64,000 nt of DNA from Blastocystis sp. Blastoise (taxonomy: Eukaryota > Protista > Bigyra: Opalinata): the NCBI GenBank assembly GCA_039096225.1, contig JBBPEB010000005.1, positions 930,001 to 994,000 of the forward strand, read 5' to 3'. Shown one piece after another: positions 2,132 to 56,329 of this stretch. The notes under the pieces were generated by a model. It made no database searches. It was not told where the DNA came from and worked only from the letters and a program-made list of their open reading frames with translations. The translations under genes were made by a program, and so were the position numbers. Numbering within the stretch: position 1 is the first letter of the stretch; each line of letters begins with the position of its first letter.

Positions 2132-2203
2132 GGCCTGCTGGTCTAGTGGTATGATTCTCGCTTAGGGTGCGAGAGGTCCCGGGTTCGATTCCCGGGTAGG
2201 CCC
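2132..2203 (+). tRNA. trnP-AGG: tRNA-Pro(AGG), eukaryotic type
   Basis: 72-nt cloverleaf: acceptor GGCCTGC/GTAGGCC, anticodon arm CTCGC-TTAGGGT-GCGAG (AGG at 2164-2166), T arm with GGTTCGATTCC, and a T-run terminator just downstream. Confidence 0.97.
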
Positions 2204-4491: not shown

Positions 4492-5387
4492 ATTCTTCCG
4501 TTCTTCGAACTGCAGAAGGGGGTATGCAAACCCCGCATAGAGTCTGCGCGACGCGCGCAGCCATAAGCGGGGAAGACATCCCCCCTTTTTGTTCTCGACG
4601 GAAGAATTATTAACATTTCTGAAGTAAAATAACCATGGGAGTGTAGGGTAGTGTGTGTGTGTATTTATTTTTTCCCATGTTTATTTATTTTTAATTTATT
4701 TGTGTTCCGATTCCAACGTGAAACGTAAAGTGATCAAGGAGAAACTCATAGTAATCATAAAAGAAATAAAATACACACTCACACCCTCCCCTTTACAGGG
4801 AATATTCATGGGAAATGGCTCCATCGTTGGTAAAGTGAGTAAAATAATCACGGGAATACAGAAAGAAATACGAAAAGAAGCACAGAATGTGCTAAATAAA
4901 CACACACCCCGACCCTCCCTTTATATAGAGAAAAGATGAAATGGATGGTTCTATCTAAAAAGAAATAATAGAAATAATCACGGGAATATATAAAAATAAA
5001 AATGTATGTATAGTGATCAATAAATAATATAAAAAGTCATGATAATCATAAAAAAAATTATATAAAAAGAGTAAAGTGATCAAGGTATGTATTTATAGTG
5101 GGTGAAAGAAAAGCTGGTGGTGGTGTGGTCTTGTAAAAAGATGTACCCACCACCACGATTATAACGAGAGACTTTTGGAAACAAGGGTGACCGTTATGGA
5201 AATAGGATGCGTCATCGTGAATTGTCCAATCAAATTGCTTAAAAATGTAAAAATGAGGGATTTTGGAACACAAAAACATAATTATATTGGGGAAACTGGG
5301 GAAACTAATTGTGTTCCAGTGGTTTTAGGTGGCGGGGTGTATATCAATTTTCTAGAATATTCTAGAACATTCTCGAAACTTCTAGAA
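4492..5387 (+). repeat. Left terminal inverted repeat of PLV copy 1 (896 bp)
   Basis: Near-perfect reverse complement of 35145-36041. Confidence 0.96.
5350..5387. promoter_or_regulatory. Heat-shock-element-like array at the inner end of the TIR
   Basis: TTCtaGAAtaTTCtaGAAcaTTCtcGAAacTTCtaGAA: 8 alternating nGAAn units. Confidence 0.75.
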
Positions 5388-5435
5388 TAATAAATTGTAT
5401 TATGCATTTTTTTTTCTATTTTTATACTATTTATT

Positions 5436-13965: not shown

Positions 13966-16212
13966 TTTTTTTAAATAAAAAAATATTAATAAATAAAATA
14001 AAATTAATATAAATTATTATTTAATAAATTAGAAAAATATGGAACTTGATGATGATAATTATGAAGAACAGACTTCATTAGAAGAGAAGGATACTCGTAT
14101 TAAAACACATGTAGTCCCTATTGATGTTCGTTGTATTGATAATCAATTCAATATACATTTATCGAATTCTATTGATATCACTAAAAATATCATTTCTTAT
14201 ATTGATCTTAATTTAATTGGTAGTGAAAGTGTGCCTCTATTTGATACTTTCACAAAAACACAAATATTCAAATATATAAATACTCGTGTCAATGGTAATG
14301 AACAAATTCAAACAATTACTTTAGATCAGAAAAATTATTCTATTCCTCAATTATTAGAACTATGTCATTTTGATATATGTGATAGACCAGTAATAAAAGA
14401 TTCTCCTGATATTGATCCCACTGTCAAAATTAATGAATCCCCTACAATAACCATTGATAGAGATGATTGGTATTGTGAAATTACAATTTATAATAAAAGA
14501 CGTGGTTTTTACTTTCCAAAAGGTACTTATACGGATATAGAGTTTTGGTGGATAGCTGTATGTTGTGTATCAGCTAAATGGGGTGATAAATTTAATCGTT
14601 TAATGATGAAATATGATGATGATACTATAACCATATATCGACCTCAATTAGCTTCTTATAATGTTCCTGTTACATCAACAGGAATCTATGAATTGAATGA
14701 ATTCTTTACTGATGGTGTGAGTGATCATTCAAGTTATATTGTTCCAACACAAGGTTCTAATGGAATTATGAAATGTGTATTAGCTGATGAACATAAATTT
14801 TATTTCCAATGGTCAAGTAATAATATACTCAGTTTAGAAAAACAATTATTCACTGGCTTATTTGAAGATTCAGAAACATTGACATATACTTCACTTCAAG
14901 AGGAAATTACATTAAATAGAATTAAAAGAACAGTCTTTGTGGAAGATGGATATAATACAATGATTGTTCGACAATTGAGTGGTTATGATGGTGTTCATGA
15001 AACTACATTCACTGTTCCTCCTGGAAATTACACAGAAAACAAATTCTATGAATTATTAGAAAGTTCAATCAATAATACAATTTATACGGATTATTTAAGT
15101 ATATCCAAAGATGCTCAGACTATGGACAATAAGGATGGATATATAATATATTTATCTTGTAAAGGTACTGATTCTACGTCATTCACATTTACAGCTACAG
15201 ATATAGAACATTCATTATTTAAGTATCGTGGTGCTCTACATAATATACGTCCTGATCTGGTTTATGATGAACAAGGATGTTTTGCTTGGTATACTTCTTA
15301 TGGTAAACAATTATTACCAGATACACCTGTTGATTTGAATACATTAGATTTAGATGGTAATTATAAGTGTTATACTGATAGTTATCATATAGATTTCTCT
15401 CAAGCTCAAGAATTAGGTGAAATCTTAGGTTATAATAAATTAGGTCATGATGAAATTATTAATTATGGTGTTCATAATATTGATAGTAGTCGTCCAAAAG
15501 GAATGTTAATAGCTCAATCGAATATAGTAGATAATAGTCAGAATTCTTTATATTCATTTAATGTGAATAATTATAAAGGCAATAATGAATTTCATGATAT
15601 TATGAATATTAATGTGTCTCCTTATTTGAATACAATACAAGATATTACAATACGATATACTGATAAAAATAAACAATATGTGAATTTCAATAATAATTGT
15701 ATTTTAAGAGGATTTTTAGAATTCTCAGATACAGTCGATACGATTCAACCTAGTGAAACCATTAAGAAATTATGTTTGAATTGTTTAACAGCAGACACAC
15801 AATTCTATGCTGAATATCCTACATTGAATATCCAGAATAAGATCTTAAAAGATATTATTATTCAGAATGATACTGATACGATCCAAACAAATGCATCTAA
15901 ATTATGTACTGGATATATAAATGGATCATATTATCCTACATTTAGTTTTCCTTTATCTGATAAATATGTTACTTATAGTAATATAAATTCTCCAATCACA
16001 ATTGATCATCATATAGATTTAAGATTTGATGAATTATTCAAAGGAAATATCATTTGTAATATATGTGAACCGAATGGTAGTGATATACGTTTCAAAGCTT
16101 ATGATGAAGTATATTGTGATTTTAGTACAAGTAAGAATTTAATTTATGAATTGAAGAAAACCAATGTCTATGGATATCAATATTTAACGAATATACAAAT
16201 TACTAGGGTCAC

Positions 16213-16249
16213 GCCGCAGGTCCGGGGCCTAACGGCACCGGACCGCGGC
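16213..16249 (-). terminator. Helitron 3' subterminal GC-rich hairpin (rolling-circle termination signal)
   Basis: Minus strand GCCGCGGTCCGGTGCC-GTTA-GGCCCCGGACCTGCGGC, then GTGACC-CTAG; identical in copy B. Confidence 0.85.
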
Positions 16250-16410
16250 TGCAATGAATAATAAGTGTTTTGTTTTTATTCACTTTCTTTCCTTATTATC
16301 TACTATATATTATATAATATATATTATTTATTAAATATTATCTATAATATGTTACTTATTATCTATAATATGTTACTTATTATATATTATATATATTATT
16401 TTATTAACAC

Positions 16411-16480
16411 TTCTTATACTCTATATGGAGAGTTACAATCATATATTGATTGTAATCAGGTTCAATTCCTGATATAAGAA
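16411..16480 (+). ncRNA. tRNA-like cloverleaf 1 in Helitron A
   Basis: Stems TTCTTATA/TATAAGAA, CTCT-ATATGG-AGAG, TACAATC/GATTGTA and TCAGG-TTCAATT-CCTGA (B-box-like). Confidence 0.6.
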
Positions 16481-17879
16481 TTAAAATTTACTTTTGAATA
16501 GTATCTGAAAAACTAAAAACAATACTATAAAAAAAATAAGAAATCGTTTTTGAATCATTATATTTGTTATTTATTATTTTAAAAATATATTTTGTATTTA
16601 TAAATAGTTGAGTTACTGCTTTAATTATTATGGAGTTTCTAAAGCTAATAAATTTAGAAATGGGTCACAATGTTAAGTATTGAAAGTCATTATTATGTAA
16701 AATCATTTTAAATAGATTATAATAAGGTAGTTTACACTTTCTTTAACCATTTCATAAAACTAAAACGAATCTAACACAACAAAGTCAACATTCATTTTCA
16801 CTTTAACGACTTAAACACATAGTTTTAGAATTAATATTAATAAAGTCACTCTAAAAAGCATTTCTATACATAAAAGTGTCAACAATATCGCTTGTAAAGA
16901 GACTTCACCATTTTGATATCCAGTGTATCAAAATAGTTTTAGACATAACTTTCACATAGTATAGATCTCATTATTTCATATATTACTTATAGTTGAATGT
17001 CTTGAATCTCTGACCTAAAGACCCTTTTTTATACATTTTGAAAAGTTAACACACTTATAGTTAATTTAAAAAGCTTATATTTTAACACTATGCTCAACAT
17101 AACTCTATCAATACATTAGCTACCATTTTGACACTCTTTATAAACATTTTTCATTTGGTCATACACTTTGTCAAGAGTATTTTTGTCCCTCCTTTTAATA
17201 TAATTCAGACTATAAATAATAGTTTGATAAATAAAATGTTTTATATTGAATCTCGTCCTTTGGATAATTCATTTCTACATTTTAAAAAAATAATCCCTTT
17301 AAACTTGTTTTTAAAAGTCAAAATTTTCATAGTATAACAAAAACACAATTTTAAAAGAATAGACTTACTCTTTAAAATTTCTGAACAACTCAAACGCATT
17401 CTTAATTCACTTGTCAAAAATGAAATTCTCTTATTTTTTAATATGTTGTAGAGTACATGTTGTTCTATATTAAACAATTTCTATAATTTTAAATCTCTTA
17501 ATTTAATAACCTATTTTTTCACATTTCTTATTGCTTAAAATTTTACACATAATTAAATATATAAATGAAAGTGGAGAATACAAAACTTAATAATAACTCA
17601 ATCATTGATGTAATTATATCGCTAGTCTATATCAGATTAGGTGATAAATGAATGTTATTATAAATTAAAACAATATTAAGGACCACATACTAATAACATT
17701 AACTAATTTCAAAATTATCTTAATAGTAAGCACAATAAAAATTATAAAAAACGAACAAAACAAAAATAAATAAATAATACTAAGAAAACAGATAATAGAA
17801 AGATATTATCTGTGAAAAAAAAAAATAATAATAATAAACAAAGCAAAACAAAACAAAACAAAAATAAAATAATATGTTA

Positions 17880-19079
17880 AGTATGCCAACCAAATTAGAA
17901 GAACCTATAGAAATAAAAGATAAATATATATATATATACCTTCAGCATTAAAGAACTATTTACACCATCACTATATAGATAAAATATATAGATATATATA
18001 TTAAAAGAAATATAAATATTTGTTATATATATATATATATATATATACCTTTAGATATATTTTTATTATTAAAATAAAAGCCAACATTAGGGTGATAAGA
18101 TCCCCTATTAGAAAAGACACCTATATATAATAAATAATAAAAAATATATAAACAATAAAAATATATATACCTTCTAAAGAAGGAACAGAAAAATAAGTAT
18201 CATATCATAACTGACTTGAAGAACCTATATATAATGATAAGATAATTAATAAATTAAAAAAAAAAAGAAAGGAAGAAATAAGTATATACCTTTCATTACC
18301 TATAATAGAAGACTCGATCAGAATAGAAGGACCTATATATAAATAATAAATAAAAATAAACTAAAATAAATTAAAAAAATAGACATACCTTAATTATTAA
18401 CACCTTCAGCAACCACACACACAACAATAAAAGAACCTATAAAGAAACAGTAATAGACAAATAATAAATAAAAAAATAATAATAATAAATGAATGACAAT
18501 ATATATATATACCTTTAATACCATAGGAACAGTCTATCTGATCACCAACAACATCAACAGCAGTATTGAAAGCATCAGAAGAACCTAAATATATATAAAA
18601 GTAAAAAAAGAAAAATAAATGAATGACAACATACCTTCAACACCACACAGACATCTATCATCAACACCACTGTCAACATGCACAGCAACTGAAGAACCTA
18701 TATATATATATAGAAATAATAAAAAAATAATAATAAAATATAAAAATAAATTAAATGATTGGCAACATACCTTCAATACAATAAGAAGAACCTACAATCA
18801 CATCATTAGAACCATTAGCATCATTTAAAACAACAGAAGAACCTATAAATAAATAAAATTAAAAAAATAAAAACAAATCATTGACAACATACCTTCACAG
18901 TTAGCATAGCAGGCAACACCACAGCCTCCGTATGATACAAATAACATAGAAGAACCTAAAATAATATAATAAATAATTTAAAAAAAAAAGAAATGGAAAA
19001 TATATACCTTTAAGACCATCAGAGCAAGTAATACCAAGACCAAGAACATACACAACTGGATCCTATTGAGTAGAAGAAC
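17880..19079 (-). pseudogene. Multi-exon cargo gene (fragment) in Helitron A with repeated symmetric exons encoding GSS...(E/K)G units
   Basis: GT-AG introns at 18956-19007, 18843-18892, 18698-18770 and 18585-18634 separate exons of 72/63/72/63/72 nt. One in-frame TAG; further short exons downstream; 3' limit approximate. Confidence 0.6.
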
Positions 19080-19509
19080 CTGAAAGTTTTTGAGAAATGT
19101 ATATTTTTCCATCTACACACTTCGATCTTGACAGCATCATGCCTTCTGAGGCATCTTAGATAATATTTTAATTATAAAAAATAAGTGTTTTCTCTTAATA
19201 TAAAAATTGTGTTTATATTTCCACTTTTAAAGAATAGGGTCTATTTTAAAAATATGCTTCTTAAAAATTAATAGAAATTAAAAAACCCTTGAATTTTCAT
19301 TGATTTATTTACAAAAGTAATAATTGGGTCATTTTCTATTAAAAATATTTAGGGTACCCAAAAAACATAGTTTTTTACATTTTTTAAATATTTTATTATA
19401 TTGATTGACTGAGTATGTTTTATTTATTTATTTGATATTGTTTAGTTATTATTATTATATTTATTTGTATATATTGATTTATTCATTTAAAATATTTCAT
19501 TTTCTATAG

Positions 19510-19944
19510 GATTGTTTTGTATTTGTCTTCGTTATAGTGGTGAAGTGTTCTTGAAGTGGTCTTGGCTGTGTAAAATGGTTTATTTATGATCAGGTATATA
19601 AATATATTATTTATTTCTTAAGATCTGTTTTTCTTTTTGTTAATTCGTTTTTATTATTTATTATTTTTATTATCAATATTATTTATTTAGTCTTTACATA
19701 TAATTTATTCTATATATTATTAATAATTTTTATTCTATAGGAAAGAAACTTCAATGGATGTGTTGTGGTCTTCGTTGCTAAATATTTTCCTTCTTTAATC
19801 TGTCGTTCAAGGTTATTTTAAAGGTATATATTTATATTTTATTTATTATTTTTATTATTTATTGTTTACATTTTTTTTTATTATTTATTTATTTATTTAT
19901 TATTTATTTATTCATTTTTTTTATATGTTTATTTATTTATTAAT

Positions 19945-19975
<31 letters not shown>

Positions 19976-20050
19976 TTATTGTTTATTATTTATTTATTTA
20001 TTTATTTATTTATTATGTTTATTTATTATATATAGGTTTAATATTCTTCT
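19510..20050 (+). other. Divergent spliced unit in Helitron A (exons 19510-19593, 19741-19823, next acceptor at 20035), no clear ORF
   Basis: TATAG|G acceptors and AG|GTATAT donors are kept in both Helitron copies while the intron bodies diverge. Confidence 0.45.
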
Positions 20051-20491
20051 TAGTTTTTTTTTTCTTCTTTCTATCTTCGTTCTTCTTCCTTCTTACTTCT
20101 TCCTTCTTCCTCATCCTTCCTACTTACTTCATTCTTCCTTCCTTCTTCTTCCTTCTTCCTTCTTCATTCTTCCTTCTTCTTTCTGCCTTCTTTCTTTTCA
20201 TTCTTTACTTCTTCCTCCTTCTTCCTTCTTCTTCCTTCTTCCTTCATTCTTCGTACTTACTTCTTACTTCTCCCTTCTTCTTCACCTTGGTTCTTCATTC
20301 TTCTTCCTCCTTCCTTCTTCCTTCTTTCTTCTTTCTTCTTCCCCATCCTTGATTCTTCCTACTTCCTTCTTCCTCATCCTTCTTTCTTCCTTCTTCTTCA
20401 TCCTTCCTTCTTACTTCTTCATCCTTCCTTCTTAAACTTCCTCCTTCCTTCTTCCTTCTTCCTTCCTACTTCCTACTTCCTACTTCCTCCT

Positions 20492-20565
<74 letters not shown>
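20045..20565 (+). repeat. Polypyrimidine (CTT/CCTT-rich) tract followed by a (TA)n microsatellite
   Basis: Directly visible; the counterpart at 42233-42863 is longer. Confidence 0.9.
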
Positions 20566-20587
20566 ATTATTATTATTTATAAACTCC

Positions 20588-20654
20588 CTTTATGCTCTAG
20601 AAGGAGAGAAACAATCATTATAGATTGTTTTCAGGTTCAATTCCTGACATGAAG
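20588..20654 (+). ncRNA. tRNA-like cloverleaf 2 in Helitron A
   Basis: Stems CTTTATG/CATGAAG, CTCT-AGAAGG-AGAG, AAACAATC/GATTGTTT and TCAGG-TTCAATT-CCTGA; T-run downstream. Confidence 0.65.
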
Positions 20655-22932
20655 TCTTATTTTTCTTTTTCTTTAATATTTTTTACATATTATATATATA
20701 TATATATTTTCTCTTTTTTTAAACTTATTTTTATCTCTTTTAGATTATACCTTTTAAATTTTGACATTATATACATATATCTAACTGTTTATAGTTTTTT
20801 TAGACTTCCTCTTCTCAACAACAGTCACAATGAGAACAAATCCATTTTAACTCAAACAACTAAGTCATCTCAAAACTGTTTGAATCAATTAATATAGACG
20901 TCTATGACATAATTTATCAATTTAAACTGATTTTCAACTCTCAAAAGTAAGCAAACCAAACACACATGTTGACTTTAAAACGTTAAACTCAGTATTAAAA
21001 GATAGTTTTTATAGAGTGGACATAAAACATTGATTTAAACAAAAAGGAATGGAAACAATTCACTCTTGATACAACTTTACCATTTGACAAAACACTCATC
21101 CACAATATTTTCCAAAGTTCTTTTAGTAAAGTGTTTATATAGACATATTATGTATAAAATGAAAGTCAACTTCTTGAATCTCTTTGTTTAAGACAGTGTT
21201 TAAAACATTTTGACAAATTGACAACCTTTAACTTGCTATTTAAAGTTAATATTTAAAGAATAGACTTGATTCAGACATATAAACACAACTGTCATCACCA
21301 TAACACTTTTAAAGACACTTTACCATTTGCTCATACACTTTGATCAAAATATTTTCGTCCCTTCTTTTGACATAATATAGGTCATACACTCTAGTTTAAT
21401 GAATAAACACTCTTATTTTGAATCTCGTCCTCTAAGTCACTCATTTTTACATTTATTTAAATTTAAGACCCTTAGAGTTGACGTTTTAAATCAATTTTTC
21501 TACAGTGCACGAAATTCACGATTTTGATCAAACTGAAGTAAAAATAAATTTTAAATAATAGTCACAACCCTTCACACATCCACTCTTTAAAAATTATTTT
21601 AACTGTACTTTTGATATGTTGTAGGGCTACTATAGCTGTACACTAATTAATATCTCTAGATTTTTTATTCATAGTCTAAGACTATGTTTTACACATTCTT
21701 TTGAATTTGACAACCTTAAACTATTTATTTAAAGCTCTTATTCATAGAATAAACTTGACTTAACATTCTATACACATATGCAAACCCTTTTTCTTTTTAA
21801 GACACATTTTGTCATTTGGTCATACACTTTGACCTTCATAATTTTGACTCTTCTTTTAACATAGTATAGAGTATTATCTCTAGTTTATTAAATAAAAGTC
21901 ATTATATTGAATCTCTCACTCTAAGACCACTTAATTCACATTTTTCAAAATTGTCATACTTAAACTCATTATTTTAAGACTCTGTTTCTACTATAGTAGT
22001 TTGATGACCTATTGATTACTATGATACAATATTAGTCGATTATAAGAAGATCGAAGAAAATATCGATCACTCAAAAATCGTCTTCAGGAGCTCAAAATCG
22101 CTACACCTAGGTTTTCTGACCTCCTGAATCAGAATATGATGTCAAATTAAGAATCTAAATTTGACCGTTAAGGCCTCACGTGTTCAATATGAAAAAGTAT
22201 TAAAAAATAGATAAATATAAAGAATAAACACGGATAACGTATATTGTGGGATTGAGAAAAAATCAAGTTTACCCCATGTTTATTTTCCAATTATCTGGTC
22301 AACAATTTTTATCGGGGTCATCCCAAAGAGCCAATCAAAAACGACTCAAAAATCATGTTTTCTGCTCTTTTATTAATAACTTTTTAGTTATAAATAATAT
22401 CGCTTAACTAAATATACGGTGCACAACTACACGTTATATCGTATTGAACTGTGTTTCACTCAAAAGTTAACTCCCCGTAAGTTTAGAGGAGTTGCGGCGA
22501 CAAACTATAGTATATAGTAGCCAATCAAATGCATTCTCCAAAAACTGACCAATGGGAATTTTTTTGCCTATTCTCATATATATAGTAATGATATCAGTGT
22601 ATGGTCAATCCACTGATTACTTATATCCTATTTCATTAAGATGTTTTACTAATGAATATGAGAATAATATTCATGTTATTGATACTACAAATCTACCTTA
22701 TTACTATTCGAATGGTATTAAATATGAAGGTATATCAAATAAGATCAATAAGAATGTCTATTATTGTAATCGTAAATTATTAAAGTTATTACCTCATGAT
22801 AATATGTTCTTTATTACTTGTGATTATCCTTGTGTTGTTTTATTAACTATCTCTTATATATAAATATTTTAATTCATTTCATTTAAATTAAAAAATGTTT
22901 TGTTATATTATTCATTTAAAAATTATTAAAAA

Positions 22933-28266: not shown

Positions 28267-28334
28267 GATTATTTGACTTATAAATAATGAAAATAAATAT
28301 GGTATAAAATTCAAAACAAATAATATATTAAAGA

Positions 28335-28472
28335 TTCTAGAAGTCAGTTTTGGAAGCTTCTAGAACATTCAAGAACATTCTAGAACATTCTAGAACATTC
28401 TATAATAGTAAATATTACTTTATATTTTTAAATGTTCTAGAACCTTCTAGAACCTTCTAGAACCTTCTAGAA
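28335..28472. promoter_or_regulatory. Two HSE-like arrays upstream of the primase-helicase gene
   Basis: TTCnnGAAnn repeats with 10-bp period at 28358-28400 and 28435-28472, plus a single unit at 28335. Confidence 0.75.
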
Positions 28473-28582
28473 CATCCTTTTTATACTTTAGTGTTTTAAA
28501 TGTATATACAATAAACAAAACAATTTTCAATGATTTTTTACAAGTTTATAAGTAAAAATAGAAAAATAAACAAGAAAAATAA

Positions 28583-30223: not shown

Positions 30224-30331
30224 AGAATTCTTGAATGGTCTAATGGATCTATTAAAGAAATATGTAACCACAGTATCATGGTTCGATTCCGTTAAAATGT
30301 TTCCATTAGATTATTCAAGTGTTCTTTTTTT
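30224..30331 (+). ncRNA. Viral RNA polymerase III small RNA, VA-RNA-like architecture (~105 nt)
   Basis: A-box TGGTCTAATGG (30236-30246), B-box GGTTCGATTCC (30280-30290), T7 terminator (30325-30331), 18-bp terminal stem 30230-30247/30302-30319. Confidence 0.78.
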
Positions 30332-30377
30332 CTAGAACCTTCTCGAACCTTCTAGAACCTTCTAGAACCTTCTCGAA
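30330..30377. promoter_or_regulatory. HSE-like array upstream of the SSB-like gene
   Basis: Five TTCnnGAA units at 10-bp period. Confidence 0.75.
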
Positions 30378-30454
30378 AATTGATTCATTTGAAAAGAATA
30401 TCGTAAAATATTAGTATTAAAATACTTATATTTTTACTAAATACTTAACTAAAA

Positions 30455-35134: not shown

Positions 35135-35182
35135 TTCTCGAATGTTCTAGAAGTTTCGAGAATGTTCTAGAATATTCTAGAA
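35135..35182. promoter_or_regulatory. HSE-like array upstream of the short recombinase gene
   Basis: Five TTCnnGAA units at 10-bp period. Confidence 0.75.
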
Positions 35183-36041
35183 AATTGATATACATGCCGC
35201 CACCTAAAACCACTGGAACACAATTAGTTTTCCCAGTTTCCCCAATATAATTATGTTTTTGTGTTCCAAAATCCCTCATTTTTACATTTTTAAGCAATCT
35301 GATTGGACAATTCACGATGACGCATCCTATTTCCATAACGGTCACCCTTGTTTCCAAAAGTCTCTCGTTATAATCGTGGTGGTGGGTACATCTTTTTACA
35401 AGACCACACCACCACCAGCTTTTCTTTCACCCACTATAAATACATACCTTGATCACTTTACTCTTTTTATATAATTTTTTTTATGATTATCATGACTTTT
35501 TATATTATTTATTGATCACTATACATACATTTTTATTTTTATATATTCCCGTGATTATTTCTATTATTTCTTTTTAGATAGAACCATCCATTTCATCTTT
35601 TCTCTATATAAAGGGAGGGTCGGGGTGTGTGTTTATTTAGCACATTCTGTGCTTCTTTTCGTATTTCTTTCTGTATTCCCGTGATTATTTTACTCACTTT
35701 ACCAACGATGGAGCCATTTCCCATGAATATTCCCTGTAAAGGGGAGGGTGTGAGTGTGTATTTTATTTCTTTTATGATTACTATGAGTTTCTCCTTGATC
35801 ACTTTACGTTTCACGTTGGAATCGGAACACAAATAAATTAAAAATAAATAAACATGGGAAAAAATAAATACACACACACACTACCCTACACTCCCATGGT
35901 TATTTTACTTCAGAAATGTTAATAATTCTTCCGTCGAGAACAAAAAGGGGGGATGTCTTCCCCGCTTATGGCTGCGCGCGTCGCGCAGACTCTATGCGGG
36001 GTTTGCATACCCCCCTTCTGCAGTTCGAAGAACGGAAGAAT
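35145..36041 (-). repeat. Right terminal inverted repeat of PLV copy 1 (897 bp)
   Basis: Reverse complement of 4492-5387. Confidence 0.96.
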
Positions 36042-38400: not shown

Positions 38401-38662
38401 TAATTTGATTTTTTTTACATATTTTTAAAATAAATATATAAAATATATATATATATTAAAAAAGAATAAAAATAATAATAAAATATATATATACTAGGGT
38501 CACGCCGCAGGTCCGGGGCCTAACGGCACCGGACCGCGGCTGCAAAGAATAATAACAGTTTGGCTTTTATTTTCTTTTTTTTCATTATTATCTATTATAT
38601 ATAATATATAATATATATTATATACTATATATTATATATTATATATATTATTTTATTAACAC

Positions 38663-38732
38663 TTCTTATACTCTATATGGAGAGTAATAATCATTTGTTG
38701 ATTATAATCAGGTTCAATTCCTGATATAATTA
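38663..38732 (+). ncRNA. tRNA-like cloverleaf 1 in Helitron B
   Basis: Homologue of 16411-16480 with a compensatory change ACAATC/GATTGT to ATAATC/GATTAT; the closing stem is shorter. Confidence 0.55.
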
Positions 38733-40022
38733 TTAAATTGATCATTTGAATAGTATCTGAAAAACTAAAAACAATACTTAAAAAAATGAGAAACCCTTTT
38801 TGAATCATTATATTTGTTATTTATTATTTTAAAAATATATATTGTATTTATAAATAGTTAAGTTACTATTTTAATTATTATGGAGTTTCTAAAGCTAATA
38901 AATTTAGAAATGGCTCACAATGTTAAGTATTGAAAGTCATTATTATGTAAAATCATTTTAAATAGATTATAATAAGGTAGTTTACACTTTCTTTAATCAT
39001 TTCATAAAACCAAAACCCATTTAACACAACAAAGTCAACATTCATTTTCACTTTAACGACTTAAACACATAGTTTTAGAATTAATATTAATAAAGTCACT
39101 TTAAATAGCATTTCTATACATAAAGGTGTCAACAATATCGGTTTTAGAGAGACTTCACCATTTTGATATCCAGTGTATCAAAATAGTTTTAAACATAACT
39201 TTCACACAATATAGATCTCATTGTGTTATATATTAATTAAAATTTGATGTCTTGAATCTCTGATATAGAGACCCTTTTTTATACATTTTGAAAAGTTGAC
39301 ACACTTAAAGTTAATTTAAAAAGCTAACATTTACACACTATACTCAGCATAACTCTATAAACACGTTAATAACGATTTTAACACTCTTTATAAGCCTTTT
39401 ACATTTGGTCATACACTTTGTCAAGTGTATTTCTGTCCCTCGTTTTGATATAGTTTAAAACATAAATTATAGTTTGATAAATAAAATGTTTCGTATTGAA
39501 TCGCATCCTCCTAAAACTTATTATTATATTTTTTTTAAATAAAACCCTTTAAACTTGTTTTTAAAAGTCAGTACTTTCATATTATAACAAAAACACAGTT
39601 TTAAACAAACAGACAAACTCTTTTAAATTTTTAGACAACTCAAACACATTTTTAATTCACTTGTGAAAAATAAAATTATTTTAATTTTTTACATGTTGTA
39701 GAGTGCATGCTATTTTATATTAAACAATTTTTAGAATTTTTAATCTCTTAGTTGAAGAGCCTATTTTTTAACATTTATTAATTTTTACAATTTTACATAT
39801 AATAAACTATATAAAAAAAGTATGTGGAGGATTCAAAACTTAATAATAAGTCAATTATTGATATGATTACATTGGTGAGTCTATATAGAATTAGATGAGA
39901 TCAATAAATGTTTTAATTAAATTAAATACAAAGATTAAAATGATCCATACTATTAATATTAACTAATTTAACAATTGTTTTAATAGTCAACAATTAAAAT
40001 TAAAAAACAAAGCAAAAAAACA

Positions 40023-40053
<31 letters not shown>

Positions 40054-40881
40054 CAAAGTATTATATTAAATAAGTAAATATAGATTAGCTAAAGCTAAAC
40101 AAAGTAAATAAATAGATATATAAAGAAAGAAAATATAAATAAAAAATAATAAGCAAAAGAAAAAGAAAATTAAAAAAATAAAAACATTCTAAGTATACCC
40201 ATCATATTAGAAAAGCCTAAAAAATAAAAGACATATATATATATATATATATAAGAGATATAATAATAAATATATGATATATATATATACCTTTAAGTAT
40301 TAGAGACCTATCCACACTATCACCTATATAGATAAAGATATATATATAAAAGATACATTATAATAAATATATGTAATATATATATATACCTTTAGATATA
40401 TTTCTATTTATAAGAATAAACATTATCATCATGATGATAGTATTCCAAATTAGATGGTACACCTATATATAATAAATGATTGAGATAATAATAATAATAT
40501 ACATGAATAAACAATAAATATATATATATATATACCTTCTAAAGAAGGAACAGAAGAATAACCATGATATCATAACTGAGTTGAACAACCTATATATGAA
40601 CAAATTAGTATTAATAAAATAAAAAGAAATTAAAAAATAAAGAAATATGAATATACCTGTATCATTACCTATAATAGAAGACTCGATCAGAATAGAAGGA
40701 CCTATATATAAATAATAAATAAAAATAAACTAAATTAAATTTAAAAAATAGACATACCTTAATTATTAACACCTTCAGCAACCACACACACAACAATAAA
40801 AGAACCTATAAAGAAACAGTAATAGACAAATAATAAATAAAAAAATAATAATAATAAATGAATGACAATATATATATATAC

Positions 40882-41222
40882 CTTTAATACCATAGGAACA
40901 GTCTACCTGATCACCAACAACATCAGCAGCAGTATTGAAAACATCAGAAGAACCTTCAACACTACACAGATATCTTCATCTACACCACTGTTTACATGCA
41001 CAACAACTGAAGAACCTTCAATACCATAAGAGGAACCTATATCTACGTAAACAGAACCATTAGCATCATTTAAAGCAACAGAAGAACCTTCACAGTTAGC
41101 ATAACAGGCAACACCACAGCCTCCGTATGATACAAATAACATAGAAGAACCTTTAAGACCATCAGAGCAAGTAATACCAAGACCAAGAACATACACAACT
41201 GGATCCTATTGAGTAGAAGAAC
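40882..41222 (-). pseudogene. Fused (intron-less) version of five cargo exons in Helitron B
   Basis: 341 nt = 72+63+72+63+72 minus a 1-nt deletion; junctions are exact splice products. Confidence 0.85.
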
Positions 41223-42232
41223 CTGAAAGTTTTTGAGAAATGTATATTTTTCCATCTACACACTTCGATCTTGACAGCATCATGCCTTCTGAGGCATCTT
41301 AGATAATATTTTAATTATAAAAAATAAGTGTTTTCTCTTAATATAAAAATTGTGTTTATATTTCTACTTTTAAAGAAAAGGGTCTTTTATAAAAATATGC
41401 TTCTTAAAATCTAATAGAAATCAAAAATACCCTTGAGTTTTCATTGATTTATTTACAAAAGTAATAATTGGGTCATTTTCTATTAAAAACATTTATGGTA
41501 CCCAAAAAACATAGTTTTTTACATTTTTTAAATATTTGATTATATTATTTGATTCTGTATATTTTATTTATTTATTTGATATTGTTTTATATTGCATTAT
41601 ATCTATCTATCTATATAGTTATTTATTTATTCAAAATAATACACTTTTTTATAGGATTCTCTTGTATTTGTCTTGGTTGTTGTAGTAAAGAGTTCTTGAA
41701 GTGGTCACGGCTATGTGAATTGGATTACTTTGTGTCAGGTATATAATATATATTTATTTTTATAGTATTTGTTTTTTAATTCTCTCATTACTTTGTTTTA
41801 TTTTATATTTTTGTTATCTATATTATTTATTTTGTCTTTTTATATCATTTATTAAATAGTTTTTAATTATTTTTATTCTATAGGAAAGAAAATGTTGTTG
41901 ATGTGTTGTCGTCTTCGTTTTTTCATGTCATTCTTCTTTAGTCTGTGGTTTCAGATTAATCTATTAGGTATATATTTATATTTTATTTATTATTTTCATT
42001 TTTATTATTTATTATTTATGTTTTTTATTTATTTATTTATGTTTTTTATTTATTTATTTATTATATTTATTTATTTATTTATTATATTTATTTATTATAT
42101 TTATTATATTTATTTATTATATTTATTTATTTATTATATTTATTTATTTATTTATTTATTATATTTATTTATTTATTATTTATTTATTATTTATTTATTT
42201 TTATATGTTTTCTATTATATATAGGTTTTATA

Positions 42233-42825
42233 GTCTTCTTGTTCTTTTTTCTTCTTTCTTCCTTCTTTCTTCTTCATTTTACTTCTTCCTTCTTCCTTAT
42301 CCTTCCTACTTCTTTCTTCCTTCTTTCTTCCTTCTTTCTTCTTCCGTCTTTCTTATCCTTCCTACTTCTTTCTTCCTTCCTTCCTCATCCGTCATTCTTC
42401 CTTCCTTATTCTTCCTTCTTCCTCATCCTACTTACTTCTTCCTTCTTTCTCATCCTTCTTTCTCATCCTTCTTCCGTCTTCCTTATTCTTCCTACTTCCT
42501 TCTTCCTCATCTGGCATTCTTCCTACTTCTTCCTACTTCTTCCTACTTCTTCCTGCTTCATCATTCATCATTTCCTTCTTCCTGCTTCCTTCTTTCTTCT
42601 TTCCCATCCTTGATTCTTCCTTCTTCCTTCTTCCTCATCCTTCATCCTTGTTTTTTCCTTCTTCTTCCTCATTCTTCCTTCTTCCTCATCATTCCTACTT
42701 TTACATCCTTCCTCATTCTTCCTTCTTCCTCATCCTTCCTCATCCTTCCTACTTCATTCTTCCTCATTCTTCATTCTTTCTTCTTTCTTCCTACTTCCTA
42801 CTTCTTTCTTCCTACTTCCTTCATT

Positions 42826-42863
<38 letters not shown>
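42233..42863 (+). repeat. Polypyrimidine tract and (TA)n in Helitron B
   Basis: Directly visible low-complexity sequence. Confidence 0.9.
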
Positions 42864-42867
<4 letters not shown>

Positions 42868-42892
42868 ATTATTATTATTATTTATAAACTCC

Positions 42893-42959
42893 CTTTATGC
42901 TCTAGAAGGAGAGAAGCAATCATTATAGATTGTTTTCAGGTTCAATTCCTGACATGAAG
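42893..42959 (+). ncRNA. tRNA-like cloverleaf 2 in Helitron B
   Basis: One change relative to copy A, turning an A-U pair into G-U. Confidence 0.65.
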
Positions 42960-45628
42960 TGTTATTTTTCTCCTGTTTTTTAATATTTTTTTTTACATAT
43001 TATTATTATATATATATATTCTCTTTTTTAAATTCATTTTAATCCATTTTACTTTATACTTTTCAATTTTGACATTGCATACATATATCTAACTTTTTAT
43101 AGTTTTTTTTAGACTTCCTCTTCTCAACAACAGTCAGAATGAGAACAAAATCCATTTTAACTCGAGCAACTAAGTCATCTCAAAACTGTTTGAATCAATC
43201 AATATAGACGTGTATGTCATAATTTATCATTTTAAACTGATTTTCAACTCTCAAAAGTAAACAAACCAAACACACATGTTGACTTTTAAACGTTAAACTC
43301 AGTATTAAAAGGTTATTTTTATAGAGTAGACATAAAACATTGATTTAAACAAAAATGAATGGAAACAATCAACTCTTGATACAACTTTGCCATTTGACAA
43401 AACACTCATCCACAATATTTTCCAAAGTTCTTTTAGTAAAGTGTTTATATATACATGTTATGTATAAAATGAAAGTCAACTTCTTGAATCTCTTTGTTTA
43501 AGACACGCTTTAAAACATTTTGACAAATTGACAACCTTTAACTGGTTATTTAAAGTTGATATTTTAAGAGTAAACTTGATTTAGACCCTTAAACACAACT
43601 GGCATCACCATAACACTTTTAAAGACACTTTACCATTTGGTCATACACTTTGATCAAAACATTTTCGTCCCTTCTTTTAATATAATATAGATCATACACT
43701 CTAGTTTAATGAATAAACACTCAAATATTGAATCTCGTCCTCTAAGTTACTCATTTTTACATTTTTTTAAATTAAGACCCTTAGAGTTGATTTTTTGACT
43801 CAATTTTTCTACAGTGCACGAAATTCACGATTTTGCTCAAACTGAAGTAAAAATAAATTTTAAATAATAGTCACAACCCTTCACACATCCACTCTCTAAA
43901 AATTATTTTCTTTGTACTTTTGATATGTTGTAGAGCTACTACAGCTGTACACTAATTAATATCTCTAAATTTTTTATTCATAGTTTAAGACTATGTTTTA
44001 CACATTCTTTTGAATTTGACAACCTTAAACTATTTATTTAAAGCTCTTATTCATAGAATTGACTTGACTTAACATTTGAAACACATATAGACACCCTTTT
44101 ACTTTTTAAGACACATTTTGTCATTTGGTGATACACTTTGACCATCATAATTTTGACTTTCCTTTTAACATAGTATAGAGTATTATCTCTAGTTTACTAA
44201 ACAAAAGTCATTATATTGAATCTTATCCTCTAAGACCACTTAATTCACATTTTTCAGAATTGTGACACTCAAACTCATTATTTTAAGACTCTGTTTTAAC
44301 TATAGTAGTTTGAGGACCTATTGATTACAATACTGTAATATTAGTCGATTATAAGAAGATCAAAGAAAATATCGATCACTCAAAAATCGTCCTCAGGAGC
44401 TCAAAATTGGTACACCTAGGTTTTTTGACCTCCTGAATCAGAATATGATGTCAAATTAAGAATCTAAATTTGACCGTTAAGGCCTCACGTGTTCAATATG
44501 AAAAAGTATTAAAAAATAGATAAATATAAAGAATAAACACGGATAACGTATATTGTGGGATTGAGAAAAAATCAAGTTTACCCCATGTTTATTTTCCAAT
44601 TGTCTGGTCAACAATTTTTATCGGGACGATCCCAAAGAGCCAATCAAAAACGACTCAAAAATCATGTTTTCTGTTCTTTTATTAATAACTTTTTAATTAT
44701 AAACAATATCGCTTAACCAAATATATGGTGCACAACTACATGTTATATCCTATTGAACTGTGTTTCAACCAAAAGTTAACTCCCCGTAAGTTTAGAGGAG
44801 TTGTGGGTACAAACTATAGTATACCTTAACCAATCAAATGCATTTTCCAAAAACTGACCAATGGGAATTTTTTTGCCTATTCTCATATATATAGTAATGA
44901 TATACAATAAATTTTTATAATAAACTTTGAGATATTTGTTTAACGAATCAACTAATACTATATAAACAATAAATAGAATGAATATATAAAATATAAAAAA
45001 AACTATAAGAATAAATATATATTTCTACTAATAAATACTATAAGACCTATATATACAAAACTATAGATAAAAGTAAATAATTAAATTAAAAATAAATAAT
45101 TATATAAAACAATACTATTTAATATATATCTGAATTAAATATATCAAATAAATTAAATAAAATAACATAAAAATAATAATAATAAAAATATTTATATATA
45201 CCTAAAAAATGAAAAGGAAGAATTTTCTTTTTTAATTAAACCACTTTTTCAAGATTCGGTAACTACCCTAGAGTAATATAGATAGTGAATAAAGTAAAAT
45301 AAATAAAAGAATAAATAAAAATAAATATATACAGAAATGAATGTCTCCCATTCTCTCACTTTTGTTTTGATTTGAATTTATTTTGATTTAAAATCGTCAA
45401 CCATTAGTACATAAGTGATTTGAAGAATCTCATTCAATTACAACCTAAATAAATAAAATAGAAATTAGACAAAATTATTATATTTTATATTTATATACTT
45501 TTGAAGAGACCTGTGTGACTAAAGTGAAGGCTTGAAACTGTTAGTGACACCTATAAGTTCTAAAAATAAATAAACGATAACATAATTACTGATTAAGTAT
45601 TTGTATATAAAATAATTATAAAATAATA

Positions 45629-46386
45629 ATTCTTCCGTTCTTCGAACTGCAGAAGGGGGTATGCAAACCCCGCATAGAGTCTGCGCGACGCGCGCAGCCA
45701 TAAGCGGGGAAGTCATCCCCCCTTTTTGTTCTCGACGGAAGAATTAATAACATTTCTGAAGTAAAATAACCATGGGAGTGTAGGGTAGTGTGTGTGTGTA
45801 TTTATTTTTTCCCATGTTTATTTATTTTTAATTTATTTGTGTTCCGATTCCAACGTGAAACGTAAAGTGATCAAGGAGAAACTCATAGTAATCATAAAAG
45901 AAATAAAATACACAGTCCAACCCTCCCCTTTACAGGGAATATTCATGGAAAATGACTCCATCGTTGGTAAAGTGAGTAAAATAATCACGGGAATACAGAA
46001 AGAAATACGAAAAGAAGCACAGAATGTGCTAAATAAACACACACCCCGACCCTCCCTTTATATAGAGAAAAGATGAAATGGATGGTTCTATCTAAAAAGA
46101 AATAATAAAAATAATCACGGGAATATATAAAAATAAAAATGTATGTATAGTGATCAATAAATAATATAAAAAGTCATGATAATCATAAAAAAATTATATA
46201 AAAAGAGTAAAGTGATCAAGGTATGTATTTATAGTGGGTGAAAGAAAAGCTGGTGGTGGTGTGGTCTTGTAAAAAGATGTACCCACCACCACGATTATAA
46301 CGAGAGACTTTTGGAAACAAGGGTGACCGATATGGAAAAATATAAATTTTCTAGAATATTCTAGAACATTCTCGAAACTTCTAGAA
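45629..46386 (+). repeat. TIR of PLV copy 2 (758 bp, internal ~137-bp deletion)
   Basis: Matches 4492-5387 but lacks the segment 5203-5340. Confidence 0.93.
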
Positions 46387-46484
46387 CATTCGAGAACATG
46401 AGAATCTTAGATATTTTATTTTGATTTTCTTATGTATTATTCTTTTGAAAATAGAAGTTTTAGAGATTCTACTTGAGAAAATCA

Positions 46485-47420
46485 ATGAAAAATACAAATT
46501 ATGACAAGTATCTTTTGGTTATACAGAATTCAAATTATTCTGATATTTGGAAAAAACGTTTAACCAATTATTTCAATTTATATATTTTCCCATTACCATT
46601 TAAAAAGTTCTCAGAATTCTTAAAGAATCCTTATTCATTCATGGATTATATGGTAAATGAACGTAAAATCAAAATTAGTCCAATGAAATCGTTATGTGAA
46701 TTGATTTTATTTATTATACGTAATGTTTCTTCATTAAATAAAGAAGGTATTTTAAATAAATGGTGTGAATTTTATGTGATTATCAATTCTATGTATGAAA
46801 AATATCTGGATAATAAGAAACGTACTTTAATTCAAGATCTTATTAAAGATGGTATTACGACTCCATATTTACATGAATATCACGATAAATTAGAAAATTA
46901 TAATCCATTACGATTAATATTAGATTTTTACTCCTATCTTCCTCCTGCTCGTGCTGATTATGCTCAATTATTCATTCTATCACCAGAAGATACTATTGAT
47001 CCAGCTATTCATAAGAATTATATTGTTTATGATAAAGAGAAACATACTGGTTCTATTCTATTAAATGATTATAAAACTGCTGGTAAATACTCTACAATTC
47101 AATTAGATGCACCAAAAGAATTGATTGAAGATCTAGAATTACTCTTAAAAAGAAATCCAAATCGTAAATTTATATTTGAATCTTCTGTAAGAACTGGATT
47201 TACTACTAAAGCATTTGATTGGTTTGTGAATAAGCATTTAAAACAAATCCATCCAAAATTGACCATTAATGCATTAAGAAAATTATATGCTACAACTACA
47301 ACCAATACATTCCAAGATATAGAAAATTCTGCTTCTGCTTTATGTCATAATGATTATACGCATATTAATTCTTATGTATCTTTAGAAAATAATAATTTAT
47401 TTAAAAAATTAATTGAATAA
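46485..47420 (+). CDS. Tyrosine recombinase, short form (copy 2)
   Basis: Protein identical to copy 1; HSE array at 46349-46396 upstream. Confidence 0.88.
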   Translation: MKNTNYDKYLLVIQNSNYSDIWKKRLTNYFNLYIFPLPFKKFSEFLKNPYSFMDYMVNERKIKISPMKSLCELILFIIRNVSSLNKEGILNKWCEFYVIINSMYEKYLDNKKRTLIQDLIKDGITTPYLHEYHDKLENYNPLRLILDFYSYLPPARADYAQLFILSPEDTIDPAIHKNYIVYDKEKHTGSILLNDYKTAGKYSTIQLDAPKELIEDLELLLKRNPNRKFIFESSVRTGFTTKAFDWFVNKHLKQIHPKLTINALRKLYATTTTNTFQDIENSASALCHNDYTHINSYVSLENNNLFKKLIE

Positions 47421-47493
47421 TTTTATGTTTTCATGTTTGTTTTGCTTTAATTTTGAATATAACTAAACAACTAGTAATAAAAGGATATAAAAA

Positions 47494-47868
47494 TTAATTA
47501 AAAGGTAAGAAAGATAGATTATTATTATTATTTTGATATTGATTTTGTTGTTGATTACTTTTCATAGTTGGCATAAACATATTATTGGGTTGAATAAGAT
47601 TCTTATCATCTTGATATTGATTCTCATTCTTCATATATTGTTTATCCAATAGCATTTCAAGACGTTGATGAATCACAGGATCATCTATATAAAGTAACAT
47701 GTTTCTACAGTAACTCAATTGCAAATCACTAAGATTCTTGTTGTTATTATTATTTAAAAATTGTTCTAATAGATTTGCTATTTCATTCTTTTTGGATTTA
47801 ATTCCTTCTTCTTTTAGATTCTTCATCACACGACAAAAATAAGAATAACTAAGATATTTCTTGTTCAT
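47494..47868 (-). CDS. Hypothetical Q/N-rich protein (copy 2)
   Basis: Identical protein to 33663-34037. Confidence 0.75.
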   Translation of the reverse strand: MNKKYLSYSYFCRVMKNLKEEGIKSKKNEIANLLEQFLNNNNNKNLSDLQLSYCRNMLLYIDDPVIHQRLEMLLDKQYMKNENQYQDDKNLIQPNNMFMPTMKSNQQQNQYQNNNNNLSFLPFN

Positions 47869-47970
47869 TATTAAAATTAACCAATGATTAAACAAAACAA
47901 ATTAATTATATAAAATACTAATATAATAAATTAAAGATTCTACAAATAGAGCCAGTTCAAAATGAATGTT

Positions 47971-48126
47971 CTAGAATGTTCTAGAACGTTTCTTGGACAT
48001 ATAAAAGAAAAGTAATATATATATAATAATCAGAACAATTTCAATAACTGACAGTATTTCATTTACATTCTCTAAAGTTGCTGCACTACGATCTAAGTAG
48101 TAATTGCCAAATCGTTTCTTTGTCAT
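47971..48126 (-). CDS. Small putative membrane protein (copy 2)
   Basis: Homologue of 33405-33560. Confidence 0.55.
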   Translation of the reverse strand: MTKKRFGNYYLDRSAATLENVNEILSVIEIVLIIIYILLFFYMSKKRSRTF

Positions 48127-48212
48127 TATAGTATTAAATAATAAACAAAACAAATTAATTATACAAAATATTAATATAATAAATTAAAGATTCTAGAATG
48201 TTCTAGAAGGTT

Positions 48213-48746
48213 TTAACAAGGCATAAGATTTCCATTAGAAATTAAATAAAGTAAAGAATAATAAAAGCAACCATTTGCATTACTTGTAGTTTTTTGGTGT
48301 TGAATAGGATTATATTGAATATTATGATTTTGAATAAATGATTTTGAAAAAGTAGGTTTATTTCCTAATGATGAATAGTGTTCTATGTTTTTATTACCAT
48401 TATAAATAACAGCTTCAAAATGACCATTATAAGGATCACTAGGACTTTCATGAAAGATCATATTAAATTTAGTTTGATCTTGATCTATATTTTGTTCAAA
48501 ATCATCATAACTATTATAATAATTATAAGATTGAGAATTCGTTTTATTTAATTGTTTCATAACATTTTCAGCACGATCACAAGCAACAGAAGAGGTAGGT
48601 TTATTTAAATAAGCATAATTATATAATTGAGATATTAAAGAATTTGGTATATTACAATATTGAGATAGAGTTTGTTTGAAATTATCAGGGGATCTAGGAG
48701 TAACATGACGAGTTTTATCAGATATAATAGGATTATCACAATTCAT
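48213..48746 (-). CDS. Adenain-like protease (copy 2)
   Basis: Homologue of 32785-33318; slippery site at 48800-48806. Confidence 0.8.
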   Translation of the reverse strand: MNCDNPIISDKTRHVTPRSPDNFKQTLSQYCNIPNSLISQLYNYAYLNKPTSSVACDRAENVMKQLNKTNSQSYNYYNSYDDFEQNIDQDQTKFNMIFHESPSDPYNGHFEAVIYNGNKNIEHYSSLGNKPTFSKSFIQNHNIQYNPIQHQKTTSNANGCFYYSLLYLISNGNLMPC

Positions 48747-48778
48747 TGAATTTTGAATTAATTTCTCATCTTTACTCT

Positions 48779-50425: not shown

Positions 50426-50500
50426 TTTTTTATTTCAATTATAAAATTATTTATAAACAAAACAAATATATTAATAAAAAATAAATTTAACATTAAAAAT

Positions 50501-51094
50501 TTATAAATTAGTTAAATCAATAATAGTATCATTACTATTAGTATTCTTCGTAGATTTATCGATGACTTTAATAGAACGAGCATATAAACCAATATAATAC
50601 TTGTTATTATAACGATGAATACCATGTATTGTAAATAATACTTTACATAACGTATTTGGTGGAATATACTTTTCACGTATTTCTTCGTAAGTTAACTTAG
50701 GATCTTTACCGATATTAATCTTCTTATCTCTTTTATCAGTAATATCAATAGTAACATTCTTCGATGCATTAATAGGTACTTTAATTGTAATCTTATACTT
50801 ACCATTATCCATACGTACAAAATTAACAATATCACCATCAGGACATAATTCACATAATTTACGATAAAGTTCTTTATAAGCAGTTAAGAATACTTGATTA
50901 TCATCTTCAATTGTTAATAAAGTCCATTTATCACGTGTAACAATATAACCAAATAAACATGGTGTAGCATCAGTAGAAATACATACACGATGATTATTAT
51001 TTAAAAGAACAGCATTTTCTTTGGTGTCATCCCATTGTAAATTAAAGTTAGAAGTATCAAGAATAGTAGGTTTTTTAAATTCAGTTGTAGACAT
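50501..51094 (-). CDS. Probable SSB (copy 2)
   Basis: One amino-acid difference from copy 1. Confidence 0.55.
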   Translation of the reverse strand: MSTTEFKKPTILDTSNFNLQWDDTKENAVLLNNNHRVCISTDATPCLFGYIVTRDKWTLLTIEDDNQVFLTAYKELYRKLCELCPDGDIVNFVRMDNGKYKITIKVPINASKNVTIDITDKRDKKINIGKDPKLTYEEIREKYIPPNTLCKVLFTIHGIHRYNNKYYIGLYARSIKVIDKSTKNTNSNDTIIDLTNL

Positions 51095-51217
51095 TTTTAG
51101 TTAAGTATTTAGTAAAAATATAAGTATTTTAATACTAATATATTACGATATTCTTTTCAAATGAATCAATTTTCCAGAAGGTTCTAGAAGGTTCTAGAAG
51201 GTTCGAGAAGGTTCTAG

Positions 51218-51325
51218 AAAAAAAGAACACTTGAATAATCTAATGGAAACATTTTAACGGAATCGAACCATGATACTGTGGTTACATATTTCTTTAATAG
51301 ATCCATTAGACCATTCAAGAATTCT
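51218..51325 (-). ncRNA. VA-RNA-like Pol III RNA (copy 2)
   Basis: Reverse complement of 30224-30331. Confidence 0.78.
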
Positions 51326-51416
51326 ATTTGAAACTATTCTATTCTCCATTTAAACTTTGTGTAATTAATTTAAAAAAAAAATAAACAAAACAAAATAATT
51401 AATTAAATAAAAATAA

Positions 51417-51944: not shown

Positions 51945-52342
51945 GATTATTTAAACCTTCAAAAGTATTTTTATACAATATATTAAATATACTATTTTTA
52001 GTGTACAGTTCTTCATTTCAGTTGCTAACAAAAGCCTATTGCTTCCAGCTGGAAAATAAGCCAATAAAATAACTTATTTCGTATGACACATCGTCGTCAT
52101 CGTCTAATTGTGTTTTACTAATTTTTTTATCCAATCAGATTACAGATGCCAACTATACTCGTCATTGAAACACAAATAAAAAATGCTAAGTCGACAAAAT
52201 TAGCCAATCAAATGAACCTTCTAGAACATTCCATAGAGATTCTACACTGTCTCCTAGAATATTTAATATTCCATTTAAATGTATTATTTATTTCATTTTG
52301 ATAAATATAAATTTTCTCTCTGTAACGATATTCGCGATTATA

Positions 52343-56285: not shown

Positions 56286-56329
56286 ATATATATTTATTTT
56301 TTATTATAAAAAGTTGTTTTGTTTTAAAA

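Follow-up and report, generated by a model that had tools for sequence, protein, structure and literature searches.

A linker-less tRNA-like cloverleaf conserved within a Blastocystis Helitron, a candidate substrate for RNase P and RNase Z

Introduction

The closest described counterparts of the structure reported here are mascRNA and menRNA, tRNA-like elements at the 3' ends of the vertebrate long noncoding RNAs (lncRNAs) MALAT1 and NEAT1 (MEN-beta), respectively. In their crystal structures, eight linker residues are missing, the D arm is smaller, and the anticodon-equivalent stem is longer; the acceptor has 7 bp, the T arm has 17 nt, and two D-loop G residues dock on the T loop (PMC11693755). 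According to a 2025 abstract, no lncRNAs other than MALAT1 and NEAT1 mature through the tRNA machinery (PMC12941219). Here, we describe a fold of similar design at four sites within two copies of a non-autonomous Helitron, in a 64,000-nt stretch of DNA from the gut protist Blastocystis sp. Blastoise (GenBank assembly GCA_039096225.1, contig JBBPEB010000005.1, positions 930,001 to 994,000; hereafter the window).

All forms of RNase P sense the distance from the tRNA elbow to the acceptor end, with PRORP given as the form in stramenopiles (PMC10941002); our literature search found no paper on RNase P in Blastocystis. Helitrons are recognized by a 5' TC, a 3' hairpin with CTAG, insertion between A and T, and captured gene pieces (PMC5876387, PMC4778049). 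The strand that reads from TC to CTAG is the one that they transpose (PMC5876387). A first-pass annotation of the window had reported four tRNA-like cloverleaves inside such an element, with compensatory changes in two of the stems, and had proposed an RNA polymerase III (Pol III) tRNA mimic, a mascRNA-like processing signal, or a TFIIIC-binding barrier.

Structure and conservation of the cloverleaf

All four cloverleaves are present on the plus strand, A1 and B1 in the first Helitron copy and A2 and B2 in the second (Table 1). The fold of 68 bases has helices of 7, 4, 8, and 5 bp, a GG in the D loop, and a T loop of TTCAATT. The third stem has 8 bp and not the 6 bp first proposed, so the junction holds no unpaired base and no linkers. 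As the first-pass annotation had stated, the D-like arm is kept and the T arm is invariant: the D stem, the GG, and the whole T arm make up 27 unchanged bases, for which the probability under independence is about 2e-6 given the 61.5% identity of the flanks. They correspond to the bases that make up the elbow of a tRNA. The remaining positions vary, including the loop of 6 to 7 nt at the anticodon position, which is free to do so.

The 17-nt T arm gave four exact matches and one site with 3 mismatches in the window, against 0.20 expected. A generic descriptor, which asked for a four-way junction without linkers, a GG in the D loop, and a TTCRA loop, found these 4 sites there and none in 300 Markov-resampled windows. 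Folding z-scores of the four cloverleaves on the plus strand were -4.7, -3.2, -3.4, and -2.8.

Across the four sites, 93 of the 96 stem cells are paired and both sides have changed in 6 of the 24 pairs. Double changes fall in adjacent pairs (columns 1-2 and 22-23), and two further ones lie in third-stem pairs outside the earlier 6-bp version. The observed pairing percentage and covariation score were reached by none of 500 shuffles, and slid controls paired at 40-49%. Covariation had been claimed for all four copies, and that description passed over three broken pairs in A2. The four sites are two paralogues in two element copies, which leaves A against B as essentially the one independent comparison; because the rows are related in this way, we tested the contrast between A1 and B1 on its own. 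All 11 stem differences between these two preserve pairing (5 double changes and 1 G-U), and only 6 of 1,000,000 random placements drawn from the flank mutation spectrum kept all 15 variable pairs. Both one-sided changes that keep a pair do so as G-U on the plus strand and would be mismatches on the minus strand, which, with only two cases, lends mild support to a function in RNA rather than in DNA. Judged from the sequence, the cloverleaves are genuine, and the conservation of their fold exceeds chance by a wide margin.

The earlier view that these tRNA-like folds do not serve in decoding is supported. Linkers 8-9 and 26, the variable loop, and a 5-bp anticodon stem with a 7-nt loop are all absent, an 8-bp stem with a free loop stands in place of the last, and neither ARAGORN nor Rfam (RF00005 included) called any of the cloverleaves; the tRNA-Pro of the window was detected. 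Rfam matches to snoRNA families and Plastid-ycf2 fell far below the family thresholds and were rejected. Local scans with Rfam, which includes the mascRNA/menRNA family, gave no match to it up to an E value of 10.

Like mascRNA and menRNA, the cloverleaf is linker-less, sets a 7-bp acceptor on a 5-bp T stem, places two D-loop G residues beside the 3' D strand, and carries a long third stem with a free loop. It differs from them in its length (68 versus about 57 nt), in its 4-bp D stem, in the bases found at triple-forming positions, and in its setting, a protist DNA transposon rather than a vertebrate lncRNA. The likeness is likely convergent, with the cloverleaf outside that family. The tRNA-like structures that plant PRORP cuts at mitochondrial mRNA ends (PMC10941002) and GUT15, a tRNA-like RNA of Arabidopsis (PMC6152437), are likewise non-decoding tRNA folds that sit inside longer transcripts and are handled by tRNA-processing enzymes. 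Both were likened by description, and they belong to organelle or host lncRNA transcripts, in contrast to the mobile element here.

Place of the cloverleaf in the Helitron

The Helitron label was borne out. The element has a 5' TC, a 3' CTRR, and a subterminal hairpin, and it sits between A and T without a target duplication; near 58960, the inverted host-gene copy preserves the empty site. Copy 1, of this 6.4-kb family, splits one gene of the first of two Polinton-like copies, and that gene is intact in the second. The first 47 nt from the CTAG end are the same in both Helitron copies. No RepHel-sized or transposase open reading frame (ORF) is found within, and the element is hence non-autonomous. 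Non-autonomous Helitrons of the Helraiser/Helibat type have the same ends, A|T target, and captured gene pieces, and no tRNA-like fold is described for them in the parts of the sources available.

Both copies share one layout. Read on the plus strand from the CTAG end, a TA-rich tract is followed by cloverleaf A, an array of ~244-bp repeats, a minus-strand cargo gene, and then a plus-strand unit; a CU-rich tract and (TA)n end this unit, and cloverleaf B, a second array, and the TC end come after it. Cloverleaf A lies near the right end, 209 and 170 bp from CTAG in the two copies. The tRNA face of the cloverleaf is on the plus strand, opposite to the strand that reads from TC to CTAG.

TABLE 1 Features of the window and of the Helitron copies within it
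Feature	Position	Strand	Remarks
Cloverleaf A1	16412..16479	+	24/24 pairs, all Watson-Crick; TTTT follows base 16480 by 11 nt
Cloverleaf B1	20588..20654	+	24/24 pairs, one G-U; TTTTT 4 nt after base 20655
Cloverleaf A2	38664..38731	+	21/24 pairs; no T4 within 40 nt
Cloverleaf B2	42893..42959	+	24/24 pairs, two G-U
Non-autonomous Helitron copy 1, 6389 bp	16203..22591	-	TC start, CTAG end, A/T site
Helitron copy 2	38494..44900	-	A/T site; surrounding host DNA AT-rich
GC-rich 3' terminator hairpin	16213..16249	-	10 nt before CTAG end; DNA fold -19.0 kcal/mol
Helitron 5' terminal region	22320..22591		Three CCAAT and a TATA-like run beside TC end in both copies, by inspection; putative promoter
Old ~244-bp repeat array after cloverleaf A	16530..17600		Self-identity peaks 243-244, 487-488; paralogous to 20760-22000
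Old ~244-bp repeat array after cloverleaf B	20760..22000		Self-identity peaks 244-245, 488-489
Captured spliced cargo gene	18049..19140	-	63/72-nt Gly/Ser/Cys/Val-rich exons; stop in seventh exon of model
Predicted spliced transcript	19510..20587	+	Exons 19510-19593, 19741-19823, 20037 onward; ends before cloverleaf B
Polinton-like element copies, ~25 kb	4492-36041 and 45629-64000	inverted	94-99% alike
Polinton-like terminal inverted repeats, ~900 bp	4492-5387 and 35145-36041
tRNA-Pro(AGG), genuine	2132-2203	+	Found by ARAGORN/Rfam; 2.3 kb from first Polinton-like element

The block of TA tract, cloverleaf, and array thus occurs twice per copy, with A and B flanks that are only 61.5% alike. 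The A and B paralogues are the product of an old internal duplication. They may represent two Helitron subfamilies fused by 3'-end bypass, a process observed in experiments (PMC4778049), with the captured gene pieces lying between them. Each ancestral subfamily would then have carried a cloverleaf before its own right end, so that the cloverleaf, as a subterminal feature, would predate the cargo. The paralogous arrays, degenerate and non-coding, align with 0 to 1 gap columns in 500, and from this nearly gap-free alignment their spacing seems constrained. A coding role for the cloverleaf flanks was rejected, with stops in all frames and no codon periodicity.

The predicted plus-strand transcript ends in a CU-rich tract (20062-20492) and (TA)33 (20495-20561). 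Its splice signals and exon lengths (84 and 83/84 nt) are kept in both Helitron copies, and it has no ORF in copy 1. The exons (19510-19823 versus 41655-41967) are 72-77% alike between copies, against 93-100% for neighboring DNA. Contigs of one sequencing run, X1, which we guess to be RNA, align to 20751-22591 at 80-99% identity and leave cloverleaf B uncovered; runs X2 and X3 yielded no such contigs.

What the cloverleaf may do

An RNase P/Z substrate, whatever the source of its RNA, is the simplest account of all the conserved features, and we consider it fairly likely. The more specific reading that we prefer, tentatively and at somewhat less than even confidence, is that the cloverleaf, a linker-less tRNA mimic, marks RNA that enters the Helitron in antisense for cutting by RNase P/Z. 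The 7- plus 5-bp stack of acceptor and T stems, with the D-loop GG and the T-loop TTCAA, would form the elbow from which RNase P gauges distance. Plus-strand RNA entering the Helitron would be cut first by RNase P and then by RNase Z, as with mascRNA. At cloverleaf A, this RNA would come from RNA polymerase II (Pol II) read-through out of the right host flank; at B, it would come from the captured plus-strand unit. By stopping antisense read-through, the cut might keep double-stranded RNA from forming and leave the element's own transcription undisturbed, and this is the weakest step. In favor of such a cut, cloverleaf B closes the predicted spliced unit, whose last exon holds neither AATAAA nor ATTAAA in either copy.

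Several observations weigh against this reading. Cloverleaf A has no transcript source inside the Helitron; of the mascRNA-like signal first proposed, the architecture stands, but the spliced transcript said to lie upstream is found only before B. By inspection, the expression and nuclear retention element (ENE) triple helix and A-rich tract of mascRNA and menRNA (PMC8457004) are absent upstream of the cloverleaves, where there are a UA tract and a TTATWAAC motif. The upstream product would therefore lack known end protection except for the self-complementary UA tract. The literature search returned no paper on RNA interference in Blastocystis. Among the 500 shuffles, 12 reached the 6 double-changed pairs and 299 reached the pair-type count; the tool used warns that kinship of rows inflates significance, and only four copies, of two lineages, served both to derive the structure and to test it. 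Three pairs are broken in A2 (two outer closing pairs and one in the third stem), whose closing stem has a mean pair probability of 0.01, and this copy is likely decaying. When 40 nt of flank are added at both ends, the cloverleaf remains the minimum-energy prediction for A1 alone, and B1, B2, and A2 are predicted to take other folds. Finally, changed pairs number 0 of 9 in the D and T stems versus 8 of 15 elsewhere (Fisher P = 0.009; P = 0.037 for A1 versus B1), which hints, at the level of sequence, at a DNA constraint such as A and B boxes.

Such boxes are central to the main rival, which we regard as doubtful and in which each cloverleaf is a self-contained Pol III gene, with TFIIIC bound to the A and B boxes and a stop at the T run. 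RNase P/Z would then free a stable RNA of ~70 nt with a trans role as decoy or cofactor, and a chromatin boundary close to the right end would arise as a by-product. We applied the type 2 Pol III criterion of an A box, a B box 30-60 bp apart from it, and a T terminator. The B box is exact in all four cloverleaves (GGTTCAATTC) and lies 42-43 bp after an A-box-like 12-mer, which resembles the A box of the window tRNA-Pro (44 bp spacing there) and has one non-consensus base; the third A-box base, mostly G in tRNA genes, is C in the cloverleaves. A T4 follows within 4-11 nt of the three intact cloverleaves and is missing after the broken A2, against a background of 22%, T runs being frequent in 77% AT DNA. 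The TA-rich upstream DNA and the unchanged D and T stems also suit a Pol III gene. Against it, the free RNA would have no evident function, and linker loss is a trait of Pol II-embedded mimics (PMC11693755). A barrier in which TFIIIC binds and the B box alone matters, one of the functions first proposed, is disfavored and in our view extremely unlikely: the invariant, perfect B box is as it would predict, but such a barrier would not need covariation in the closing and third stems, and it leaves their pairing-preserving changes unexplained.

Other explanations place the function in DNA or dispense with it. The four-way junction could act as single-stranded DNA on the displaced Helitron strand, as a pause, helicase, or priming signal, for which the subterminal site would be apt and the minus strand of A1 folds well (z of -4.1, RNA parameters). 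This z drops to -2.1, -2.9, and -1.3 in the other copies, the loops fit a tRNA elbow only on the plus strand, and the G-U changes favor plus-strand RNA; we find this role quite improbable. A neutral relic is improbable as well, be it a captured tRNA pseudogene or head of a short interspersed element (SINE) whose stems were repaired by template switching in single-stranded intermediates, or ancestral conservation now decaying. The decay of A2, the double changes in adjacent pairs, and the TA microsatellite before each cloverleaf all agree with a relic, and tRNA-derived SINEs share the tRNA-derived head, the B box, and the adjoining TA microsatellite. SINEs have a read-through body, a 3' tail, and target-site duplications. 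In contrast, the cloverleaf keeps its acceptor stem by compensatory change and is immediately followed by a T run, which together with a cleavable acceptor would sever a SINE body; there is no tail after B and no target duplication, and the unit moves within Helitron ends. Hairpin repair explains neither the conserved loops nor the long-range closing stem, and a relic would not account for invariant arms and loops beside such divergent flanks.

A further rival, likewise built on an RNase P cut in antisense RNA, touches on replication. In it, the Helitron family independently evolved a mascRNA-type mimic as a cis element of transposition, and the RNase P cut leaves a 3'-OH, on antisense RNA crossing the circle junction at A, that primes the second strand of the Helitron circle. 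We hold this to be very unlikely. The polarity fits, and once the element is circular, cloverleaf A would have the CCAAT/TATA-like left end ~200-270 nt upstream of it. Published work leaves unsettled how the circle becomes double-stranded and counts a pre-made primer among the models (PMC5876387). Against the primer, cloverleaf B is far from the junction, Helraiser transposes in human cells, and lagging-strand synthesis accounts equally well for the published data (PMC5876387). If true, this rival would address an unexplained step of Helitron replication.

More generally, such a mimic in a DNA transposon of a protist would mean that evolution had converged on a single minimal substrate for RNase P and that a mobile element had found a new use for host tRNA processing. 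The cloverleaf would offer a small cis element for two open points, Helitron antisense transcription and the second strand of the circle. The literature search, with most subscription papers outside it, found no report of a tRNA-like structure in a Helitron; the main text of the Blastocystis genome preprint contains neither "Helitron" nor "tRNA," and its supplements hold repeat tables that may bear on the matter. A structurally conserved mascRNA-type mimic in a Helitron is thus apparently unreported.

Wider searches

Pattern scans for the cloverleaf found none in metagenome contigs or in prokaryote genomes, and the Helitron end pattern had no match in metagenome contigs. The sole cloverleaf-pattern match in viral contigs proved to be a genuine tRNA-Ser and was set aside. 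Searched on its own, the T arm had matches at 87 viral loci, of which many lie within ordinary tRNAs. When a covariance model of the four copies was run on 88 loci, no score exceeded 29.2 bits, and the arm by which these loci had been picked drove the scores; over the window, the model found no fifth copy, the next and unrelated match having 15.6 bits (E value of 0.1).

One viral contig (L021:267-328, plus strand) carries a linker-less tRNA-like fold of 62 nt, in which the CCA is encoded and the third acceptor pair is G-U. It resembles a miniature acceptor domain of transfer-messenger RNA (tmRNA), with a weak match to permuted tmRNA (E value of 0.16). Except for the T arm used to pick it, this fold is unrelated to the Helitron cloverleaf.

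Other features of the window

The relatives of the Helitron cargo gene comprise 13 annotated accessions on several contigs of Blastocystis sp. Blastoise, the source of all nine relatives of the cargo protein, and Pfam gave no name to any of them. A recoded TAG in the cargo gene was considered and rejected, since an annotated relative splices at that AG. In copy 2 (40882-41212 versus 18513-19079, minus strand), four consecutive cargo introns are precisely absent and the flanking introns are kept. The exons around them are up to 100% identical to those of copy 1, which looks like gene conversion by a partial cDNA.

The window is ~25% GC with GT-AG introns; tortoise-clade Blastocystis genomes are 21-23% GC with long introns (PMC10690189). 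Two inverted Polinton-like copies with ATPase, primase-helicase-like, and recombinase-like ORFs fill most of it. The label is based on layout, on viral clusters in the ESM Atlas, and on the ATPase, whose P-loop match is weak; a double-jelly-roll family is assigned to only 10% of the members of one such cluster. Named relatives of the capsid-like protein of the window account for 3 of 87 matches, at 48-51% identity and all in Blastocystis sp. Blastoise, and a scan for related viral loci found none. Relatives of the Polinton-like element are common in metagenome records, at 55-61% identity. Arrays of TTCTAGAA with 10-bp spacing lie upstream of several Polinton-like genes (5350-5411, 28327-28493, 30330-30401, and 35145-35206, with inverted copies) and resemble heat-shock elements.

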